A DNA stretch of 64,000 bases from an uncultured Bacilli bacterium (GTDB lineage Bacteria > Bacillota_I > Bacilli_A > RF39 > UBA660). The DNA is taken from contig OZ006970.1 of the NCBI GenBank assembly GCA_963931065.1, forward strand, positions 139,458 through 203,457, written 5' to 3'. Under the pieces are notes generated by a model. That model was not told where the DNA came from. It worked only from the letters and a program-made list of their open reading frames with translations, and made no database searches. A program made the translations under genes and the position numbers. Shown here in pieces: positions 10,477-63,910 of the stretch (position 1 is the first letter of the stretch; each line of letters begins with the position of its first letter).

Positions 10477-11905
10477 GTTCTTCGACATTAAAGGGTGCTG
10501 AGTAAATTTTCAGCATTCTTTTTTGCTGGTCTAAAAAGATTAGTAATAATTAAAATTCTAGCTTTGAAATTATCAAAATTTCTATATCCAAAACCAATAC
10601 GTTTTATCAATTTACAAGTATTATTATTTCTTTCCATAACACCATTACTATATGGCTGTTCCATTGTATTTTTTATATATGGGCTAAATTCTTTTAAAGT
10701 ATTAAGTGAAGTCTGCATATATGTAGAAATTCCACTATATTCTTTGTCTATCATTTCTTTAAATAGTATATAATTTTTTCTTTGTAATGCATATAAAAGA
10801 TTTTGATATAAATCATATGTGTTTTTTAATTCTTCATTTTCATTTAATATATAATCAACTACATCGACTTCTGTCATTAAATTTTTAAAACATAGAAACT
10901 TTCTCCATTTACTACAATCAAGTTCTAATCTGGCTTTTAATAACAATTTTCCATATCTTTTTATTTTCCTATAATTAGCTTTATCTTTTTTCATCGCTTG
11001 CACTCTAGTTTTATTAAGACTTCTACTAATTAGTTGTACAATATGAAACATATCTATAATGATATTTGCATTAGGAAAATTATCTTGTACTAATTTTATA
11101 TATGGCTTATACATATCCATAACTACATTTTCTACCTTTAGTTTGTTCTCACTTAAATAATAACTAAAATATTTATTTAAATTTTCTGTTGTTCTATCTT
11201 CTACTAAATCTAATGTTTTACCAGTTTCTGCATCACATATATTAAATGCCATTGTTTTCTTTTTCCAAGTGAATTCATCAATACATATATTTATTGGAAT
11301 ATAATTTTTATATAATTTATCTTTATCATATATTTTATTAACTTGCCTCTGAACTGTTTTATCACTTACATTATGAAGCTTTGCAATAAACTTATAAGTA
11401 ATTGTTTCTTTTGCAAACATTATTATTGAATGTTTAGTATTATTACTAATTCTACATCTATAGTCAACTTCATCAGTTTGAGGAGTTATCTTATGTTTGC
11501 AGTTATTACATCTATATAATTGTTTTGTTATTTCTAAATAACTATTCAATCCTGAAATGCTTGGTATTTTTATAGGCTTGAGAGTAACAGTACCATTTTT
11601 CTTTATATTATCTACACATCCACATTTAGGACAACAATTAGGATTTTTATCTAAAAATGTTTTTATGACTAATGATCTTCTATTCTTTATATTTCTTTCT
11701 TCAACAAAATTCTCAGTAAAATTTAAATTTTTATCTTTCATATTTAGTAATTTTAATATAGAATTATTTATAGACATCACAACACCCTCTATTCTGTATT
11801 TTTTATTCTTTTAAAACATTATAGCAGGTTTGTGTTATGATGTCTTTTTTTGGTATTAAAAAGAATGCTGAAAATTTACTCAGCACCCTTTAATGTCGAA
11901 GAACC
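10477..11905 (-). mobile_element. ISL3-family insertion sequence (about 1.43 kb) with 48-bp perfect terminal inverted repeats
   Basis: 10477-10524 (ggttcttcgacattaaagggtgctgagtaaattttcagcattcttttt) is the exact reverse complement of 11858-11905. Encodes one ISL3 transposase. Confidence 0.8.
10488..11780 (-). CDS. ISL3 family transposase
   Basis: 430 aa with N-terminal zinc-finger (CPKCG...CNNCKH) and C-terminal NGVMERNNNTCKLIKRIGFGYRNFDNFKARILI, typical of ISL3 transposases. Confidence 0.85.
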   Translation of the reverse strand: MMSINNSILKLLNMKDKNLNFTENFVEERNIKNRRSLVIKTFLDKNPNCCPKCGCVDNIKKNGTVTLKPIKIPSISGLNSYLEITKQLYRCNNCKHKITPQTDEVDYRCRISNNTKHSIIMFAKETITYKFIAKLHNVSDKTVQRQVNKIYDKDKLYKNYIPINICIDEFTWKKKTMAFNICDAETGKTLDLVEDRTTENLNKYFSYYLSENKLKVENVVMDMYKPYIKLVQDNFPNANIIIDMFHIVQLISRSLNKTRVQAMKKDKANYRKIKRYGKLLLKARLELDCSKWRKFLCFKNLMTEVDVVDYILNENEELKNTYDLYQNLLYALQRKNYILFKEMIDKEYSGISTYMQTSLNTLKEFSPYIKNTMEQPYSNGVMERNNNTCKLIKRIGFGYRNFDNFKARILIITNLFRPAKKNAENLLSTL

Positions 11906-31473: not shown

Positions 31474-31512
31474 AAAACACAAAAAAGAATAGAATAATCC
31501 TATTCTATTCTT
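31474..31512 (-). promoter_or_regulatory. conserved 12-bp-stem hairpin plus T-run (terminator/attenuator-like) in the leader of paralog 1
   Basis: aagaatagaata-ggat-tattctattctt followed by ttttgtgtttt on the minus strand, 15 nt before the RBS. A near-identical hairpin lies at 63684-63713 upstream of paralog 3. Confidence 0.5.
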
Positions 31513-31559
31513 ACATAACAAAAGAAAGTAATATTATTACTTAAATATTTATAAAGCTG

Positions 31560-31568
31560 CCCCCCCCC
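31560..31568 (-). repeat. G9 homopolymeric tract (C9 on plus strand) upstream of paralog 1
   Basis: The only long G/C homopolymers in this AT-rich window are this one and 63759-63767. Both sit in the same conserved module upstream of paralogous genes. Confidence 0.8.
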
Positions 31569-31670
31569 ATGTAGCATTTATGATATATTTATCCATAAAA
31601 TTTACCTTCTTTCTTACTATTTTTATTAACTTAATAATATCAAAAAAATAGAACTTAAACAAGTCCTATT

Positions 31671-32485: not shown

Positions 32486-35400
32486 TTATATGTTTTTTAT
32501 TGACTTTTTATTGTTTTTATTTCTATAAGAAATATACATCAAAGTACCACCTATTATAATCAACAATCCACCTATTAAATAAATATATGTAGCATTACTT
32601 CCTGTATTTGGTACTTCTACTGGTTTTGAATTAAACATTACTTCACTTTGAATATCTCCTGTCTCTAAAACATTAAATTCAACTACTGATGTATTTAAGA
32701 TATATCCATCTGGTGCTATTGTTTCAGTAAGAGTATATTTACCAACTGGAAGCTTTTCTATATAATGTGGAGTATTACTTGATATCCATTCTTCTACAAT
32801 ATTACCATTACTATCTCTAATTACTAAATGAGCCCCTTCTACTTCTACACTATTGGCCATATCAAGTTTACTTATATTTATCTTTGTAAAGTCATTAACA
32901 TAATTTATTATACTTACATTACTATCATCAGTAACACTAAAGTATATAGGACTATTATTAACAATTACTCCATCTGGTGTATCTAATTGTTTTAATACAT
33001 AGTCACCCAACTCTAAAGTATCACTAATATAACCATCTTTAGTAGTCTCAAACTCATCAACTACTTCTCCTGTTCTAGTCTCTAAGCTATACTTATATCC
33101 TTCTTCTGCATCTACTACTAATTTTCTATCATTAACACTAACAGTAGTAACATCATTACTAATATTAACAGTCTGAACTTTACCTGTCTCTAATACTTCA
33201 AAAGTAATTTTAGAACCCGTTCCCACATAACCAGCTGGAGCCTCTAATTCTTCTAAAATATAAATACCAGCTGATAATCTAACTTGATAAGGCTCATTTG
33301 TACTAATAAACTCTATAGAATCAAAATCTCCATTTTCTTTAGTCAATCTCATTCGAGCCCCTGCTATATATTCTCCATTCCTAGCATCTATCTTACCTAA
33401 GTTTACTATTATTGGTTTATTTTCAATTTCAAGATTAATTTCTTCTGTAGTATCTTCAATAACTAATTCATGAAAACTCTCATCTAAAATATACCCATCA
33501 GGAGCTTGTTTTTCTTTTATATAATAAGTACCAACTTCTAAAGTAGATAAATCTATACTACTTACATCAGTTAAATCTATATCTCTAATATATTCTTTAT
33601 TATTATTGTATAAGCCTAATATTGATCCTAAAATAGGCTCTTTACTTTCACTATCTATCTTTGTAACAGTAACTTTTCTTTTTTTATTAGATAATTTATA
33701 TACAAAAGTACTATCACTATTAGCATTAAAATCTATTTCTAATACTTCACTAGTTCTAACATAACCATCAGGAGCTTTAACTTCTTCTAATTTATATTTC
33801 CCATAAGGAACATTTATTTCTGTTGGAACATTACTACTTGTAAATGTTTCAACTTCATCTCCATTACTATTGGTAAGTCTCAATGTTGCATCTGCAACAT
33901 ATTCTTCAGTATCAGCATCTACTTTTCCAATATTTATAAAAGATTTAACATTTTTCATTGTTACTTGAATACTTGTAGTATTTTCATCTATCGTAAAGCT
34001 TTCTCTTTCTTTATTTAAAGCATAACCACTAGGTGCCTCTATTTCTTCTACATAATATGTACCTGGACTTAATTTATCAAGAGTATATGCTTCTTTAATA
34101 GTAGTAAATGTCTCTATCTCATCACCAATACTATTAGTAACTCTTAACTTTGCTCCACTTAAAGGATTACCTTCTTCATCAACTTTATTTATAACTACTT
34201 GATTATTTGAATTATAGAATGTTACAGTCTTAGCTTCTTCCTCTTCACCAGTAATAGTAACAGGAACTTCACTATTACTAAGAGTATACCCATTTGGAGC
34301 TTCTACTTCTATTACTTTATATTCTCCTTTAACAAGCCCTTTTATACTATGTGCACTATCATCACTAGTCCACTCATCAATAATTTGATTATCACTTACT
34401 CTTACAAGTCTTAATCTTGCCCCACTAACAAACTTATTATCTAAATCTTTTTTCTCTATCAAAACTTCATTTTTTTCGTCTTTAAAATCAACAGTAACAC
34501 TAGTATTATTTTTATCAATAGTAAATTCTTTTTCTTTACTATTTATAAAATAACCATCAGGTGCACTTACTTCTACTACTTTATAAGTACCTTCTTGCAT
34601 TTTAGAAGTATCAACTTCTACATAATCATTAGTTGTTGTTATTGTATCAACTACTTCATTATTACTATTAACTATATTTAATACTGCTCCACTAACTACA
34701 TTACCTGTATCACTATCTATTTTTCTTATTCTTACATCATACTTTGAATTAGTAATCGTACTACTAATATTTAAATCACTATCACTTATTACTACATTAG
34801 TACTCTCTTTATCTATATAATATCCATTAGGAGCTTTTACCTCTTTTATCTCATACTCTCCTGGTAATAAGTTATCTATTACATAATCCTCAGTTGTAGT
34901 AATAAAGTTTGCTACACTCTTATTTGTTGCCTTTCTAATTACTTCTATACTAGCACCTTCCAAAGGAGTATTATCACTACTATCTACCTTTTTTATTGTT
35001 AAACTTCCACTTGGCATTTTAACACTAGCAGATACGGTCTTCTGTTTAGGTACACCTACAAGTGTACTAACAACTGACTGTTGCATTGTATCTACCATAT
35101 CACTAGGAGGATCATAACTGTAAGCAACATATTCTGTATAATTTACTATCACATTTATATTTACATTTATAGGATTATCTATCTTAGATAAATCTACTCT
35201 TAATTTAAAACCTTCTCCACTATTTATAGTATTAGTACCTACTACAACATCACTACTATTAAGAACTTCAACTGCACTATTATCTATACTAACAGCATAA
35301 CTATCATAACTAACATTACTATTTACAGTTATTAAATCAGTAATTAAATATCTATTATCACTACTTAATTTAAAATCACTAGTAGAAATATTAAAACTAG

Positions 35401-36016
35401 GATTAATTGTAACAGGATTATTTTTAGCATAAACTGCCCCTGTTATTAATGGTTCTATAACACTATAATAAGAACTGTTTTTAATAACTTTTTTTTGATT
35501 AGCAGTTAAAACTCCATCAATATCATCACTAACACCACTTACCCTATCTTGATAAAACCAAATTGCAACTTGTGTTAAATAATCATCATTTTTATCATTA
35601 CCAGTTAAACTTTTATTAGGATAAGCATTTTGTAAGATATAAACATAACCTGCATCAAGAGGAACTTCATTTTTAGTAATAGTTTTAGGACTATCATTCT
35701 TTGGCCAATCTTTATCTTTTTCTAGACAATAAACTGTATATCTATTACTACCATCATAAGCATAATATGGTACTAAAGATATAATTTCATCTTCACTTAA
35801 TCCCTCACTAAATAAAGTAACCCTATCAGTAAGAATATCTCCCATACCAGTCGTTAATGTATCAGGTAACTCCGTTGGAATAGCATATGAACTTGCTACT
35901 GTTTTACCTAAAAATATAATCATAATAATTGAAAAGAAGATACTAACTGTAACTTTCATCCAATCATTTTCACTTTTCTTAAATAAACTACCAATCTTAC
36001 CTAACATATTCATCAC
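32486..36016 (-). CDS. sortase-anchored surface adhesin: N-terminal thioester domain, multiple CnaB/SpaA-type Ig-like repeats, VPNTG sorting signal
   Basis: 1176 aa. N-terminal region has TVYCLEKD (Cys) and TQVAIWFYQD (Gln), the thioester-domain hallmarks. At least 7 repeats carry the GEYK(I/V)(V/I)EVxAP(N/D)GY motif. C-terminus is VPNTG plus hydrophobic stretch plus KNNKKS. Confidence 0.7.
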   Translation of the reverse strand: MMNMLGKIGSLFKKSENDWMKVTVSIFFSIIMIIFLGKTVASSYAIPTELPDTLTTGMGDILTDRVTLFSEGLSEDEIISLVPYYAYDGSNRYTVYCLEKDKDWPKNDSPKTITKNEVPLDAGYVYILQNAYPNKSLTGNDKNDDYLTQVAIWFYQDRVSGVSDDIDGVLTANQKKVIKNSSYYSVIEPLITGAVYAKNNPVTINPSFNISTSDFKLSSDNRYLITDLITVNSNVSYDSYAVSIDNSAVEVLNSSDVVVGTNTINSGEGFKLRVDLSKIDNPINVNINVIVNYTEYVAYSYDPPSDMVDTMQQSVVSTLVGVPKQKTVSASVKMPSGSLTIKKVDSSDNTPLEGASIEVIRKATNKSVANFITTTEDYVIDNLLPGEYEIKEVKAPNGYYIDKESTNVVISDSDLNISSTITNSKYDVRIRKIDSDTGNVVSGAVLNIVNSNNEVVDTITTTNDYVEVDTSKMQEGTYKVVEVSAPDGYFINSKEKEFTIDKNNTSVTVDFKDEKNEVLIEKKDLDNKFVSGARLRLVRVSDNQIIDEWTSDDSAHSIKGLVKGEYKVIEVEAPNGYTLSNSEVPVTITGEEEEAKTVTFYNSNNQVVINKVDEEGNPLSGAKLRVTNSIGDEIETFTTIKEAYTLDKLSPGTYYVEEIEAPSGYALNKERESFTIDENTTSIQVTMKNVKSFINIGKVDADTEEYVADATLRLTNSNGDEVETFTSSNVPTEINVPYGKYKLEEVKAPDGYVRTSEVLEIDFNANSDSTFVYKLSNKKRKVTVTKIDSESKEPILGSILGLYNNNKEYIRDIDLTDVSSIDLSTLEVGTYYIKEKQAPDGYILDESFHELVIEDTTEEINLEIENKPIIVNLGKIDARNGEYIAGARMRLTKENGDFDSIEFISTNEPYQVRLSAGIYILEELEAPAGYVGTGSKITFEVLETGKVQTVNISNDVTTVSVNDRKLVVDAEEGYKYSLETRTGEVVDEFETTKDGYISDTLELGDYVLKQLDTPDGVIVNNSPIYFSVTDDSNVSIINYVNDFTKINISKLDMANSVEVEGAHLVIRDSNGNIVEEWISSNTPHYIEKLPVGKYTLTETIAPDGYILNTSVVEFNVLETGDIQSEVMFNSKPVEVPNTGSNATYIYLIGGLLIIIGGTLMYISYRNKNNKKSIKNI

Positions 36017-38299: not shown

Positions 38300-40132
38300 T
38301 TATCCTAGTTCTATTATAAAAGGATCTAATTTAGTACCTGTACCTCCAGTTATTATGACATTTTCTTTAAGACTTAATGTTGGTTTTATTGCATTAGTTG
38401 TTGTTGGAGCGACATTAAAACTACTACCATATTGTCCAATACGGCGCATTACATACTGGTTATTCGGAGTTATAAGCCAATATGATGTATTATTTTCTTC
38501 TCTATCAAATTGGCCTGCCATTAACTCCCCTAATCTTAATAACCCTACTGTAGCATTTGTTGTATTTGAAGTTAATGTATTACCAGTTTCATCTGTGTAT
38601 TTAGCTAACTTATATGAAATGCCACCTTCACTTACACCTCCTAGATACCAAATTGTATCATCTACTATCATGGCACTATAATTATTGTCAACATAATTTG
38701 TTAAGTATTCACCATTAAGAAAACTTCCTATTGTATTTGTACTTGAAAAAGCTATATCATCACCAAAAGGAGTTACTTTAAATGTTTCAGAGTCTTTAAG
38801 GGAAATATCACTTGTTATTTTTGTTAAACTATTAGTCTCATGACTCACTATTCTATAAAGATTATTATTATCAGTTCCAAACTTAACATATTCTCCACTA
38901 TAACGAGTATTAAGTTTTACACCATTTAGATCTTTATCATTATCTCCTTCAAGGCGATAAGGATCATCTAATGTTCCATTGCCATCTACAATCTTAACAT
39001 TAGATTTTAAATTTATGGAAGGACGTATCCCTAAAGCATTTTTACCATCAAAACAATTACTATTTCCCAAATTATCTATTTCATTCATACTTATATCACT
39101 ATATGGTGTTAATATCCACCAATGAAGACCATTATTTAAATAACCATCACTATTGCTTGTTCCTTTAAAACTCTCTTGATATTCATATAAATTAAGTAAC
39201 CCTACTGTAGCAGTTACAATAGTACCACTATCACTAGGTCTTTTTACATTTCCTAAACTAGAAGAATCCGTTGTTGCATTCCATTTAGAATTTGTTACAA
39301 TAAAATTATCAACATCTCTTAAATTATATAAAAAACCATCTACTGTCATATCATTTAACCATTCTTCCATATAACTTCCTTCAAAAACTGTGTTATCCTT
39401 GGAATAAGGAATTGTACTTATATCCCATTGAGTTACTACTTTAGCTGTTTTTTCTTCATTATTAACACTAACTATCCTCCATAGTTTTCCACTATACCAA
39501 AGATAATTATTAGGAAATTGTCCTGTTGTAAAAGTATCTACTGTATCGTTATATATATTATCCTTACTGATATTACTAAGTGCAACTGTTCCTATTTCTC
39601 CTTCATGGGTTATTTCTTCTAATATGTGACCATTACTTGGTAAAGATAAATCATTATAATCTAACCCTACCTCTACACCTAAATTAATCGTTACACTACT
39701 TCCTGAATTATTTATTACTCTTATTACATAAGTATTACTTGAACCTACTGTTCCTGTTTTTTCTAAATTTATCCCTTTTTCGGTAGGTAAAACATTTGTT
39801 TCTTCTTTATTTATATATCCTATTTTAATGTTAGTTGGTAAATCATCCAAATAATAAAAATTGAATCTTGCTTTTCTATTATTAGGGTTACTTAACTCAA
39901 CTTTAAAATCTTTTACCGTATTTGAAGGAACAGTTAGAGTATTATTTTCTATATCATCAATAGTGAGATTATAAATTAAATTACCTGTTACAATCGTTAT
40001 AGCATTATTCTTTTCTTTTGTTACTGTAAACATAGCATAAGAGAAATATCCTCCTAATACTAATAAAATTACTATAATCATTACTATTATATACATTTTA
40101 GTAAAACTTACCTCTAAGAATAATTTTTTCAT
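38300..40132 (-). CDS. secreted/surface protein, paralog 2 of the tandem-repeat family
   Basis: N-terminal 60 aa nearly identical to paralog 1. Same internal repeat motifs (GLLNLYEYQES, HWWILTP, LGIRPSINLKSN, GGTGTKLDPF). Confidence 0.6.
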   Translation of the reverse strand: MKKLFLEVSFTKMYIIVMIIVILLVLGGYFSYAMFTVTKEKNNAITIVTGNLIYNLTIDDIENNTLTVPSNTVKDFKVELSNPNNRKARFNFYYLDDLPTNIKIGYINKEETNVLPTEKGINLEKTGTVGSSNTYVIRVINNSGSSVTINLGVEVGLDYNDLSLPSNGHILEEITHEGEIGTVALSNISKDNIYNDTVDTFTTGQFPNNYLWYSGKLWRIVSVNNEEKTAKVVTQWDISTIPYSKDNTVFEGSYMEEWLNDMTVDGFLYNLRDVDNFIVTNSKWNATTDSSSLGNVKRPSDSGTIVTATVGLLNLYEYQESFKGTSNSDGYLNNGLHWWILTPYSDISMNEIDNLGNSNCFDGKNALGIRPSINLKSNVKIVDGNGTLDDPYRLEGDNDKDLNGVKLNTRYSGEYVKFGTDNNNLYRIVSHETNSLTKITSDISLKDSETFKVTPFGDDIAFSSTNTIGSFLNGEYLTNYVDNNYSAMIVDDTIWYLGGVSEGGISYKLAKYTDETGNTLTSNTTNATVGLLRLGELMAGQFDREENNTSYWLITPNNQYVMRRIGQYGSSFNVAPTTTNAIKPTLSLKENVIITGGTGTKLDPFIIELG

Positions 40133-40182
40133 AACACTCCTCCTTCATACAGTATTAAGATATAATTGTTCACAATTATATC

Positions 40183-40863
40183 TTAATAACCAACTCTTAA
40201 TATTTTAAAAGTGGCATTCAAACTACTACCATAATTTATCGCTTCCCTACTTGTTTCAAATAATAAATCAAAATCATATAATCTATCAAAACCTATATTT
40301 CCACCTCTATCTAACACTATCGCTTTAAAACTACCTATCTTACTATTACTTACTTCTATAACTGTCCCAAAAGGAATACATTTATCACTAGCAAGTATTC
40401 TTAAAGAACCATAAGTAGAATCTTCATAATAAATAGTTTCACTTATATTATACTCTGATGCAGTTAAATCACCTATATCAGAGCCATAACCACTCATAGT
40501 ACCAGTAAAAGTAGAGCCTACTGTAATAGATGGAATATATACTTCCTCTTTAGGAGTTTCATATTCTATTTTCTCATCTTTTCCTATAACTTCATCTTCT
40601 TTAGGTCCCTCTACTACTTTTGGTACTTCCTCTACTACAGATTTCTCTTCTTCTTTAACTTCTTCTTTTTCTTCTAAAGAAACATCTTCAAGAGGTACAA
40701 CTTCTATAACTTCTTCTTTTACAATAGCATCACTATTTACATAAGTAATCTTATTATTTACATCTATATTTTTTACATCAGGTTTAGTGGTACTAACAAG
40801 TAAACAACACCCCATAAATATAATAGCATTAATAATATAAATAGTTTTTCTCATAAATATCAC
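40183..40863 (-). CDS. 3D-domain (RlpA-like double-psi beta-barrel) cell-wall-associated protein with signal peptide
   Basis: Signal peptide, acidic E/K/V-rich linker, and C-terminal GTMSGYG...ASDKCIPFGTVIEV...AIVLDRGGNIGFDRLD matching 3D-domain proteins such as YocH/YabE. Confidence 0.5.
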   Translation of the reverse strand: MIFMRKTIYIINAIIFMGCCLLVSTTKPDVKNIDVNNKITYVNSDAIVKEEVIEVVPLEDVSLEEKEEVKEEEKSVVEEVPKVVEGPKEDEVIGKDEKIEYETPKEEVYIPSITVGSTFTGTMSGYGSDIGDLTASEYNISETIYYEDSTYGSLRILASDKCIPFGTVIEVSNSKIGSFKAIVLDRGGNIGFDRLYDFDLLFETSREAINYGSSLNATFKILRVGY

Positions 40864-60164: not shown

Positions 60165-60590
60165 TTATTGAAGTGCTAATGTAAACGGTTTCTCCTTAGT
60201 TCCTAGGCCTCCAGTTATTATTACATTAGATTTTAGATTTACAGAAGGCCGGACGCCGAGCGCGTACGAAGGAGAGTAGTTGTTCGCGCCACCACCGATG
60301 TTGACGAAACGCACGCGAGACGTACTATATGGTGTTAAGGTCCAATAAGTTGTATTATTACTATATCTATCAAATTGCCCTGACATTAATTCTCCAAAAC
60401 GAAGTAAGCCTACTTTAGCTTCTGTAGTTGAACTAGTTAAACTACTCATAACAGTATCTGTATATTTGGCTAATTTATATGATGTACCATCTCCTACAGT
60501 ACCTAAATACCACGTTGTACTATCTTCTATCATATCACTATATATACTGTCAACATAACTTGTTAAATATTCTCCATTTAAGAATGTTCC
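60165..60590 (-). pseudogene. 3' fragment of surface-protein paralog 3 (second repeat domain), separated from its 5' part by an IS insertion
   Basis: Reading frame is open from 60590 (AIGTFLNGEYLTSYVDSIYSDMIEDSTTWYLG...) to the stop at 60165. Aligns to the C-terminal 140 aa of paralog 1. Confidence 0.65.
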
Positions 60591-60595
60591 TATAG

Positions 60596-62092
60596 CTTAT
60601 AACCGGACAGTTTTTAAAATGATATAAAAATGACCTAGAGATTATCTAAGTCATTTTGTCTCTTAAAATTGAAATAAACAACCTTTTTTGATATTCTTAT
60701 ATAGAAAACAAAATAAAGAATAGAGGTTGTTTATGAATAAAGTATATAATACACAAGAAGAAATCGCAAGTAAAATGAAAGAAATTTTATTAAAAAGTAA
60801 TCCTTATATCAGAAAGACACAACTTAAAATTATTCCTTATATATCTTTAGGTATGATTTTATCTGAATCTTCTGTTGCAAGTGACATCGCAAAACATCTT
60901 AAAAATGATTTTTCTTTAGTTCAATTTGATTCTGTTATCAGAAGAATTAAACGTTTCTTTAAAAATAAATTATTTAATCCTTATGAATTTTATGATCAAA
61001 TTATTAAATATGTTATCTCTAATTATAAAACTAAACATTCTGACAAGACTGTTCATATTACTTTTGATCATATGTTTTCTCATGATAATTATACTGTTTT
61101 TATGATTTCTATGAGAGTTGGTAAACAAGGTATTCCTTTATGGTTTAGATGTTTTGAAAACAAAGATGATTCTGATGCTTTTAGTGAAGAACTGATTAAA
61201 GAAGGTATTTCTTATGTTTCTAATCTTTTTGATTCTTCCTATAAATTAATATTTCTTGCCGATAGATGGTTTAAATCCATTTCTTTGATGCAACACATTG
61301 ATTCATTAGGACATACTTTCTGTATTAGACTAAAAAATAACATTAAAGTATTTGTTTATGATAAAAAAGAGGGTCATAGGATTTGGAAATTTATTGAAGA
61401 TATAAAACCTCTTATGTATCACTCTAGAATTTTTAGAGATGTTTTACTTACTAATTACTCTTATAAAACTAACATAGTTATTAGTAAAAAAGATAGTGTT
61501 GATGAGCCTTGGATTATTGTCACTAACGGAGATCCTAAAAGAGCCATTAAAGATTATGGTTACCGTTTTGGTTCTATTGAAACTTTATTTAAAAATCAAA
61601 AATCTAACGGGTTTTATATAGAGTCCGTTGTTAAAGCAGGATTAGATTATTTTACCTCAATGTATTCTATAACCTGTTTTACAATTCTTTTCTTAACTAT
61701 ATTAGGTGCAGATTATTCTAAAAACACAAAATGTTATAAAAAAGTAAAAATAACTACTCATAAACACTTTATTCAAAATGGAGTTAGAATAAAGAAAAGA
61801 GTAATGTCTTTATTTAACACAGGACTTACTCTATTTCATCTTGCCTTTAACTCCTCGAGATACATTAGACTACCCTTTTCTTTTATTCTTTATGACATCT
61901 AAAAAAATTGAAAAAATTAAAGTTCTTTTTGTCGTGTATTAATTTATGTAAAAAGTGTAACTTTTAGTATCAAAAGTTACACTTTTTCTTCATTTAATCA
62001 TCTTTGCTACCAATTCATATACTGTTGGTCGTACTTTTATATCTATTTTCCCTTTGTTTTCCAACACTTTAATTAGAACTGTCCGTTGCTAA
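60596..62092 (+). mobile_element. IS4-family-like insertion sequence (about 1.5 kb) with 10-bp target site duplication
   Basis: Duplicated target gttcctatag at 60586-60595 and 62093-62102. Imperfect terminal IRs (cttataaccggacag / ctgtccgttgctaa). Rejoining the flanks restores ...SNTIGTFLNGEY..., the intact paralog sequence. Confidence 0.7.
60727..61902 (+). CDS. DDE transposase (IS4-like, DDE_Tnp_1 type)
   Basis: 391 aa with IFLADRWF and a C-terminal Y-x2-R-x4-E-x6-K-like signature (YGYRFGSIETLFKNQK). Confidence 0.55.
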   Translation: MFMNKVYNTQEEIASKMKEILLKSNPYIRKTQLKIIPYISLGMILSESSVASDIAKHLKNDFSLVQFDSVIRRIKRFFKNKLFNPYEFYDQIIKYVISNYKTKHSDKTVHITFDHMFSHDNYTVFMISMRVGKQGIPLWFRCFENKDDSDAFSEELIKEGISYVSNLFDSSYKLIFLADRWFKSISLMQHIDSLGHTFCIRLKNNIKVFVYDKKEGHRIWKFIEDIKPLMYHSRIFRDVLLTNYSYKTNIVISKKDSVDEPWIIVTNGDPKRAIKDYGYRFGSIETLFKNQKSNGFYIESVVKAGLDYFTSMYSITCFTILFLTILGADYSKNTKCYKKVKITTHKHFIQNGVRIKKRVMSLFNTGLTLFHLAFNSSRYIRLPFSFILYDI

Positions 62093-63570: not shown

Positions 63571-63758
63571 TTTTTACTCCTCCTTTTATTTTTAATAGAC
63601 TTTCCCAAATTACTATCTTTCATACTATATAAATAGTATCATAGGCACCTGCAAATATCAATAATCTTGACATTATAAAAGAATAGAATACCTCTCTACT
63701 CTATTCTTCTTGCACTATAAAAGAAAGTAATTTTATTACTTAAATTACTACTAAACTG

Positions 63759-63767
63759 CCCCCCCCC
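63759..63767 (-). repeat. G9 homopolymeric tract (C9 on plus strand) upstream of paralog 3
   Basis: Second G9 tract, embedded in a module (63684-63770) that is about 85% identical to 31481-31568. Confidence 0.8.
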
Positions 63768-63910
63768 AGATAACATTTTGTAAACACGGAATTTTAGAAA
63801 AATGACGAATTATTTTACCCCAAAAATTAAAATTAGTCATATCTATACCTCCACTTCTCTTATCTTTGTTAACTTAATATTATCATAATCTAAATAATTT
63901 ATGCAATAAC

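Follow-up and report, generated by a model that had tools for sequence, protein, structure and literature searches.

A poly-G leader module upstream of DUF6273-family genes in uncultured Bacilli, probably a phase-variable attenuator

A 64,000-nucleotide stretch of contig OZ006970.1 from an uncultured Bacilli bacterium (hereafter the window) carries two homologous copies of a compact leader module, both on the minus strand and each located 5′ of a paralogous gene of the DUF6273 family. We refer to the copies as A and B, and to the genes that follow them as gene A and gene B. Read along the minus strand, each copy contains an extended −10-like box with a plausible −35, a strong Shine-Dalgarno (SD) sequence, an ATG, a small upstream open reading frame (uORF) with a run of G residues, a stop codon, a palindrome, and a predicted terminator hairpin with a U tract. 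The uORF reads the run as TGG GGG GGG G, and the palindrome AAGTAATnnnATTACTT is followed by TCTTT(C/T). We consider the module to be, most probably, a slipped-strand phase-variable leader-peptide attenuator that acts by ribosome-mediated antitermination. This reading is favored because it jointly explains a stop-free read-through frame, the position of the stop of that frame at the hairpin apex and the polymorphism of the tract, which no rival does. The G run inside a translated-looking uORF, with its three differing frame fates, was missed in an earlier note on this DNA and is the key to the likely mechanism.

The earlier note had described the module as present twice in the window, and a repeat finder, a count of matches to its core and a count of G/C runs all confirm this. 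The repeat finder pairs 31483-31579 with 63682-63778 as a 97-nucleotide (nt) direct repeat of 73% identity. The core, AAAGAAAGTAATnTTATTACTTAAAT, has exactly two occurrences in the window (31521 and 63720; chance expectation 0.01), and the only C or G runs of at least eight in the window are those at 31560-31568 and 63759-63767 (chance expectation 0.1). The copies are homologous as had been proposed, but the homology runs further than was seen earlier: it spans approximately 63906-63672 versus 31662-31479 and takes in the promoter-like box, the SD sequence and the small ORF.

The hairpins of the minus-strand RNA are predicted by energy and shuffle folding to have −14.6 kcal/mol in copy B (z = −4.9) and −11.4 kcal/mol in copy A (z = −4.1). 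The hairpin previously noted in copy B is real and stable; it lies at 63677-63710 rather than at 63684-63713, and the sequence quoted for it was in minus-strand orientation. A simple terminator scanner, which needs at least three G-C pairs, found no terminators, and the copy B hairpin escaped it because its stem has fewer than three such pairs; energy and shuffle folding and covariation were used instead. Across 80 copies of the module, the terminator stem covaries, with a UA pair replaced by CG in 29.

These further copies were found by scanning 185,579 species-representative genomes for a pattern made of the palindrome and a nearby run of at least seven G or C. The scan returned 86 loci, of which 84 are genuine, in about 23 related metagenome-assembled genomes (MAGs) with up to 12 copies per MAG. 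Across the copies the uORF has 15-60 codons and contains the G run, and its frame is open into the run even in the variants of 35-60 codons. The sequence AGAAAGAAGGT, which departs from the extended anti-SD complement at just one of 11 positions, lies about 7 nt 5′ of the ATG in nearly all copies. Of 77 copies, 58 have an extended −10 (TGnTAnnnT) located 37-52 nt 5′ of the uORF ATG, accompanied in 44 of them by a −35 that matches at four or more of six positions. In the other 19 of the 77, the extended −10 box was not found upstream of the uORF; several of these directly follow another coding region, and a few have mis-assigned starts. In long versions of the uORF (L005, L010, L026, L055, L066 and others; window 63790-63840), a unit of about 24 nt that encodes (Y)QGKI(N/I)RQF(W/Q)GKLIRHF occurs in one to three tandem copies, indicating that the N-terminal part of the leader grows and shrinks between copies.

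The frame logic was examined by changing the G run by one G in silico and following each frame. Every copy has the same three fates: relative to the palindrome start, one frame stops 9-12 nt before it, the second stops at −1 or +3, and the third stops at about +43. The stops of the short frames leave approximately 40-42, 28-31 or 24-27 nt before the terminator stem, and the stop of the third, read-through frame overlaps the top of the terminator 5′ arm or the loop, with a single exception (L034). The spacer between the G run and the palindrome occurs in 53 distinct versions of 13-27 nt that differ by indels not in multiples of three. None of the 53 has a stop in the read-through frame, and 46 have one in the next frame. 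When the spacers are shuffled, a mean of 25 of the 53 acquire a stop in the read-through frame, and in 2,000 shuffles the count never fell below 13. At the amino-acid level there is no conservation of the peptide beyond the run: one position is occupied by H, C, Y, R or S, and the tail reads SVRRIE or YDIRAG. Because this peptide is unconserved and the hairpin beneath it covaries, it is the act of translation that would matter and not the product, and the uORF bears the signature of a regulatory leader.

The length of the G run ranges from 7 to 13 (n = 86): 47 runs have nine residues, 22 have ten, seven have eight, five have seven, three have eleven, and there is one each of twelve and thirteen. 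Four orthologous loci from different assemblies are 100% identical over more than 270 nt downstream and differ only at or next to the run, which is G9, G8, G8 and G10. Two strains that are about 99% identical over 19 kilobases (kb) and encode the same protein of 611 amino acids (aa) have G9 and G10, respectively; over the 3.4 kb aligned around the gene, they differ by no other internal indel. The copy A locus of the window has G9 in all three assemblies. These comparisons fit a slippage hot spot at the G run and stop short of proof. They are few in number: an all-against-all comparison of flanks gave few near-identical locus pairs among the species representatives, and a metagenome scan, with 11 loci only, gave one orthologous set, too few for population statistics. 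Taking the consensus run in the canonical frame, 11 of the 86 loci are ON (read-through frame) and 75 are OFF, with 0-2 ON copies per MAG. The two window copies are both G9, a length that reads as OFF; for them the ON lengths would be G8 and G11.

The position of the terminator relative to the gene divides the copies into two classes. In class 1, which accounts for about 60% of copies, no promoter lies between the terminator and the gene, and the terminator is 15-35 nt from the ribosome-binding site of the gene, such that the gene must be transcribed through the terminator. Copy A is of this class: the ribosome-binding site of gene A directly follows the terminator and leaves no space for a second promoter. 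The earlier note had placed the module merely upstream of a promoter and outside the leader. This view does not hold, as the module carries its own promoter-like box, SD sequence and small ORF, which make it a leader for read-through transcripts, and as copy A and about 60% of copies have no second promoter between the terminator and the gene. In class 2, to which copy B belongs, there are about 100 more bases between the terminator and the gene than in copy A, and they include a second promoter-like site, P2. The TTGATA-17-TACTAT site previously noticed between the module and gene B is this P2. It is real, with coordinates 63661-63633 in place of approximately 63620-63650, and it is positionally conserved in about 23 class 2 copies as TTGATA, a spacer of 16-18 nt and a −10-like hexamer. 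Class 2 leaders (window 63571-63661; L038, L069, L082) also have a palindrome that overlaps the P2 −35, for example TGTCAAAAATATTGATATTTTTGACA, and a conserved motif in the 5′ untranslated region, TAGTATAGAAGATAATAATTTGGGAAAGACTAT; the two may be an operator and a second RNA element.

The two classes bear on one alternative, in which the long-frame small ORF is a phase-variable gene for a peptide of 26-60 aa with its own terminator and function, adjacent to the family gene through co-duplication. The promoter-like box, SD sequence, ORF and terminator do form a complete small transcription unit, and the downstream gene of class 2 has a separate promoter-like site. We nevertheless regard this alternative as quite unlikely: what is conserved after the run is the RNA hairpin and not the amino acids, the N-terminal parts range from 10 to 45 residues, the frame is truncated in most copies, and in class 1 the downstream gene begins 15-35 nt past the terminator with no promoter of its own.

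Another alternative is that the leader is a structured cis-regulatory RNA, either riboswitch-like or bound by an antiterminator protein at the palindrome hairpin, that responds to a signal and in which the G run has a structural role, for example by pairing with a 9-nt pyrimidine tract or with the preceding ACC. We consider this unlikely, but there are several observations in its favor. The sequence GTTTACAAnnnGTTACCT before the run is near-invariant at the nucleotide level, including the rare codon ACC, and neither there nor in the palindrome is there synonymous drift. The 3′ arm of the palindrome together with the pyrimidine tract (UUACUUUCUUUC) is complementary to the SD region of the uORF, and both the single-sequence folds and RNAalifold choose the resulting SD:anti-SD helix of 10-12 base pairs (bp), which encloses the uORF. 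The G9 run could furthermore pair with CUUUCUUUC via G-C and G-U pairs, an idea that recalls poly-G antitermination at pyrG of Bacillus subtilis. Against it, the helices outside the terminator have no compensatory changes, and no alternative antiterminator structure is predicted: in neither the single-sequence folds nor the RNAalifold alignment does anything pair with the terminator 5′ arm. A search of Rfam gave one tRNA only for the whole window at gathering thresholds and nothing meaningful for either module region at E values up to 10. A structured RNA also leaves unexplained why all 53 spacers keep the ON frame free of stops despite their frame-shifting indels, why the ON-frame stop falls at the apex, and why tract lengths range from 7 to 13. 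A specific candidate, an antiterminator formed by the pyrimidine tract with the terminator 5′ arm, was rejected, as C-A mismatches break the complementarity and no fold predicts the pairing.

The palindrome itself, with its 7+3+7 arrangement, is almost invariant. It is intact in two copies that were found by protein look-up (L118) and degraded in one L009 copy. As an RNA hairpin it is weak alone (−2.6 kcal/mol), which would suit a DNA operator for a dimeric regulator, with the G run as a spacer or promoter element and the uORF as incidental; moreover, in the commonest spacer type, G9 places 17 nt between TTACCT and TAAATA. We find this explanation very unlikely. The two hexamers match the consensus at only three of six positions each, the −35 is lost in copy A (CTACAT), and a transcript from the run-flanking hexamers would have the terminator ahead of it all the same. 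The conserved extended −10 is 45-110 nt 5′ of the run, which falls not in a promoter spacer but within an ORF that has a strong SD sequence. The invariance of the palindrome is partly forced by the search pattern, and the ON frame and the anti-SD stretch cross it as well. A promoter overlapping the copy A palindrome (TTACTT-18-TAGAAT) was rejected, given that the spacing is not conserved in copy B. For the attenuator we favor, the palindrome might serve as a pause hairpin or belong to an anti-SD lock. The SD:anti-SD helix could, speculatively, be a pause signal or a lock that keeps ribosome loading in check.

The distribution of the module is narrow. Its host MAGs are labeled as uncultured Bacilli or Tenericutes or as Candidatus Onthousia (Bacillota; Bacilli), and the two scan matches outside this clade, in Bacteroidetes and Flavobacterium (L020 and L051), have none of the other module parts and seem to be fortuitous. 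At 47-175 nt 3′ of every copy with readable downstream DNA begins a gene for a protein of 500-670 aa with a basic and hydrophobic N-terminus; the exception is L080, where the only family ORF is truncated and lies about 470 nt away. BLASTP matches these proteins to gene A, B or C in all but two cases. Because every copy with readable downstream DNA precedes the same protein family, the module is family-specific and not a generic repeat. The earlier proposal of a duplicated regulatory cassette tied to this gene family is therefore upheld by the 84 genuine copies, and the genome scan did not reveal the module at many unrelated loci, the outcome that would have spoken for a generic repeat. The same note had suggested a transposable element as well. 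Nothing supports that suggestion: the module has no terminal repeats, it keeps a constant orientation and place with respect to the gene, and a scan of viral contigs gave no module matches, which also indicates that there is no link to phage.

An ordinary intergenic repeat, whether of the repetitive extragenic palindromic (REP), BOX or miniature inverted-repeat transposable element (MITE) kind, or a plain terminator of the upstream gene, would account for a multi-copy, hairpin-containing, intergenic sequence at which contigs often break. Such an explanation is exceedingly improbable, as the module keeps one orientation and position relative to one protein family, never occurs at unrelated loci, has no terminal inverted repeats or target duplications and was not found in viral contigs. 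In addition, the gene upstream of copy A has a separate terminator of its own (31642-31670), so that the module hairpin is not simply the terminator of that gene, in agreement with the earlier note.

Not every member of the family has a cassette. The fetched flanks contain 57 family genes with the module and eight without, and by coordinates at least three of the eight are immediately downstream of a module-controlled family gene, as if they were the second genes of tandem pairs. Same-locus look-ups (P0082, P0009, P0068, P0006 and P0052) also landed on module-free paralogs. In the window, the third paralog, gene C, follows a 226-aa ORF after an intergenic gap of only 50 nt and has no module (window 38300-40200), whereas its syntenic orthologue in another assembly (L118, 5975-6205) has a full module with G10 and an extra 163-aa ORF. 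Cassettes are thus gained or lost at orthologous positions.

Several further observations concern the loci themselves. The window derives from a contig of 1,519,355 bp (L001, ERZ21564551 s19725.ctg025008c), whose hifiasm-meta style name ends in 'c' and so hints at a small, complete circular genome. A 1.9-kb contig placed in a Muribaculaceae bin (L042, CAZJKS010000158.1; Bacteroidota) carries a typical module and a family-like gene, a placement that is probably a binning error rather than horizontal spread. Short-read contigs often begin or end in or beside the module (L071, L075, L011, L054, L119 and L120), which fits a conserved cassette of about 100 nt acting as an assembly-breaking repeat, or heterogeneity of the tract. 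In two sets of loci (L045 versus L014, L047 and L089; L095 versus L023), the terminator and gene are identical and the 5′ parts of the uORF are unrelated, with the junction at the conserved GTTTACAAT. It appears that paralogs exchange leaders by recombination at conserved segments of the cassette.

The phase-variable attenuator that we propose builds on the anatomy, conservation, frame logic, terminator covariation and tract polymorphism described above; from these we infer translation of the uORF, activity of the terminator, coupling of ribosome and polymerase, and a rate of switching. Transcription from the promoter-like site P1, or read-through from the upstream gene, would yield the leader RNA. 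A ribosome would load at the strong SD sequence and translate the short uORF containing the G run, and slippage during replication, by shifting the run by ±1 G, would set the reading frame 3′ of it. In two frames the ribosome would halt either shortly beyond the run or where the palindrome begins, with 24-42 nt left before the stem; the hairpin would form and transcription would end (OFF). In the third frame the ribosome would cross the palindrome and the pyrimidine tract and stop at the hairpin apex, where it would cover the 5′ arm and block the hairpin, and RNA polymerase would continue into the surface-protein gene (ON). With at least ten cassettes per genome, each switching alone, a population would show shifting combinations of lectin-like surface proteins.

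The closest precedent is found in the pil1 and pil3 pilus operons of Streptococcus gallolyticus, where a leader ORF contains GCAGA repeats and its frame depends on how many there are (Danne et al. 2014, PLoS Pathog, PMC3894217). A leader stop at least 28 nt before the terminator gives low pilus expression, and a stop within or after the terminator gives high expression, as the ribosome prevents the hairpin from forming; the switching was experimentally shown to be stochastic, with most cells OFF (PMC3894217). The module has the same parts in the same order, namely a promoter, a leader ORF with a simple-sequence repeat, an intrinsic terminator and surface-structure genes, and its short frames likewise stop well upstream of the hairpin and its long frame within it. 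The differences are nevertheless considerable. The module repeat is a homopolymer of G7-13, whereas pil1 has 13-23 copies of GCAGA; one of the three module frames is ON, whereas both out-of-frame states are ON in pil1. The module has no GCAGA repeats and no sequence relationship to pil1, and its lineage is one of uncultured RFN20-like Bacilli, making it an analogue and not a homologue. The cassette is present in at least ten copies per genome before the paralogous DUF6273 family, as opposed to one or two pilus operons, and it adds a palindrome, an anti-SD tract and, in class 2, a second promoter-like site. In contrast to the pilus leaders, it is known here from sequence alone.

Translation of a leader ORF also decides the fate of a downstream intrinsic terminator in pyrBI of Escherichia coli and in attenuators of the trp and his type, and in pyrBI the leader ORF runs through the attenuator, such that a closely following ribosome blocks the hairpin. 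The input to these systems is the supply of nucleotides or amino acids, whereas that to the module would be a heritable change of frame. Unlike the trp, his and leu leaders, the module has no runs of regulatory codons and no predicted antiterminator hairpin, and it precedes surface-protein genes and not biosynthetic genes. In cwpV of Clostridioides difficile, one of the two orientations of an invertible element creates a terminator in the 5′ leader, and a recombinase drives the site-specific inversion. The module would resemble cwpV in making a Gram-positive surface protein phase-variable through premature termination in the leader, but it shows no invertible segment or flanking inverted repeats, and its mutable element is a homopolymer. 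Homopolymers are the mutable element in contingency loci such as opc, porA and pilC of Neisseria, the poly-G genes of Campylobacter and vlp of Mycoplasma hyorhinis. As in those loci, a hypermutable homopolymer would reversibly switch surface antigens, and the members of the multigene family would be independent, as are the variable lipoproteins of Mycoplasma. Unlike in those loci, the tract of the module lies in a separate uORF rather than in a promoter spacer or a structural gene, and would act through transcription termination.

A number of points weigh against the proposed attenuator. Only 13% of the copies are ON, compared with 33% expected for random frames, and the dominance of G9 could mean that the tract is less labile than assumed. 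The tract lengths are taken from assemblies, in which the lengths of homopolymers can be wrong. The frame model alone explains neither the near-invariance of the sequence before the run, with its rare codon, nor that of the palindrome, and part of the palindrome conservation is imposed by the search pattern. The SD:anti-SD helix has no compensatory changes or covariation in the RNAalifold alignment. Class 2 genes might be expressed regardless of the switch, owing to the conserved promoter-like P2 downstream of the terminator. Finally, ribosome-mediated attenuation needs tight coupling of transcription and translation, and this coupling is weak in Bacillus subtilis.

A broader version of the proposal, which we put forward as tentative and rather doubtful, is that the reduced genomes of these gut Bacilli have a bank of at least ten independent poly-G leader attenuators that together give combinatorial lectin-like surface variation, possibly with three outputs, a kinetic gate and slippage noise. 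Such variation would be comparable to that of the variable antigens of Mycoplasma, but would work by ribosome-coupled termination of transcription. The three frames could give three outputs, depending on whether the ribosome stops early, stops on the palindrome or reads through. The SD:anti-SD helix and the palindrome could form a kinetic gate that admits a single co-transcriptional 'pioneer' ribosome, and slippage of RNA polymerase or of the ribosome on the G run could add noise that is not heritable.

Table 1. Coordinates of module parts and family genes in the window (position 1 is the first letter of the window)
Feature	Position	Strand	Remarks
Gene A, intact DUF6273-family protein, 607 aa	29635-31458	-	N-terminal hydrophobic signal or anchor; presumably controlled by copy A
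Predicted terminator hairpin, copy A	31479-31512	-	12-bp stem, 31512-31501 with 31496-31485, then UUUUUU
ON-frame (G8 or G11) stop TAG, copy A	31502-31500	-	At hairpin apex
Palindrome AAGTAATAATATTACTT, copy A, with TCTTTT	31520-31542	-	Palindrome 31542-31526; anti-SD-like stretch 31531-31520
uORF, copy A, MDKYIINATWGGAAL	31549-31596	-	15 codons at G9; G9 tract 31568-31560
uORF SD sequence, copy A, AGAAAGAAGGT	31614-31604	-	
P1 promoter-like site, copy A	31634-31662	-	−35 TTGTTT 31662-31657, 17-nt spacer, extended −10 TGaTATTAT 31642-31634; aligns with copy B and other copies
Terminator of upstream glucosaminidase gene	31670-31642	-	Overlapped by copy A P1
Gene C, third paralog of the window	38300-40132		Module-free
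Gene B, C-terminal fragment	60165-60533		Aligns to residues 519-639 of 641-aa homologue
DDE transposase ORF of insertion sequence splitting gene B	60727-61902	+	
Gene B, N-terminal fragment, DUF6273 family, 493 aa	62089-63570	-	Aligns to residues 3-501 of intact 641-aa homologue
P2 second promoter-like site, copy B (class 2)	63633-63661	-	TTGATA-17-TACTAT with TG extension; between terminator and gene B
Predicted intrinsic-terminator hairpin, copy B	63672-63710	-	14-bp stem, 63710-63697 with 63690-63677; U-rich tail
ON-frame-only segment, copy B (G8 or G11)	63696-63758	-	Through palindrome and terminator 5′ arm; ends TAG 63698-63696 at hairpin apex
UUACUUUCUUUU, copy B	63730-63719	-	Complementary to usual uORF SD sequence
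Palindrome AAGTAATAAAATTACTT, copy B, with pyrimidine tract TCTTTT	63719-63741	-	Palindrome 63741-63725
uORF, copy B, MTNFNFWGKIIRHFSKIPCLQNVIWGGAV	63751-63840	-	29 codons at G9; ATG 63840, stop TAG 63753-63751
G9 homopolymer in copy B uORF	63759-63767	-	Presumed slipped-strand mutable tract
uORF SD sequence, copy B, GAAGTGGAGGT	63857-63847	-	
P1 promoter-like site, copy B	63877-63906	-	−35 TTGCAT 63906-63901, 18-nt spacer, extended −10 TGaTAATAT 63885-63877; putative function

DUF6273 is the sole Pfam match of the downstream family, which has more than 3,200 metagenomic homologues, all of them unnamed. Searches of PDB sequences and NCBIfam returned no characterised homologue of gene A or gene B and no relative of solved structure. 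Models of phage receptor-binding proteins show the DUF6273 domain as C-type-lectin-like (PMC10743442). Gene B had been described as a paralog disrupted by an insertion sequence (IS), and this is borne out by its two fragments, which align to an intact 641-aa homologue and have the transposase ORF between them (Table 1).

The neighbourhoods of family genes are rich in surface-structure genes. Genes with PF27070 (HTH_Rpn_C) repeatedly adjoin family genes (L103, L104, L109, L113, L117 and L118), and 590-aa proteins with a prepilin N_methyl domain, SpaA/LPXTG pilin genes and sortase genes are found close by (window 32486-36016). The window also contains an IS of the ISL3 family at 10481-11900, with a 430-aa transposase ORF at 10488-11780, bounded by inverted copies of TTCGACATTAAAGGGTGCTGAG. 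The same end sequence interrupts the terminator hairpin of the module at two other MAG loci, just after the palindrome (L019 and L057), and is also found in the upstream flank of L004. This suggests that the ISL3-family IS targets or tolerates module hairpins.

Literature searches combining RFN20 with phase variation, and homopolymer with leader peptide, found no description of the element, and those searches showed leader-peptide phase variation with attenuation to be demonstrated in one species only, in two pilus operons. The mechanism is of a known kind, and what appears to be new is the homopolymer, the one-in-three frame logic, the extra conserved parts and the presence of at least ten cassettes per genome. 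If the broader version of the proposal is true, it would be the first case of homopolymer-based, family-wide leader-peptide phase variation, and it would be evidence that this lineage exploits tight transcription-translation coupling for regulation. The present findings suggest that the logic of the pilus operons evolved a second time, independently and around another mutable element, and that it was seemingly extended to an entire family of putative ligand-binding surface proteins. A switch of this kind would account for assembly breaks at cassette loci, and may offer synthetic biology a compact, portable one-in-three stochastic switch. The hosts, which live in the gut of birds, livestock and humans, are uncultured bacteria with small genomes, for which the module would give a testable handle on surface variation and would mean that the presence of a gene in these MAGs does not predict its expression.

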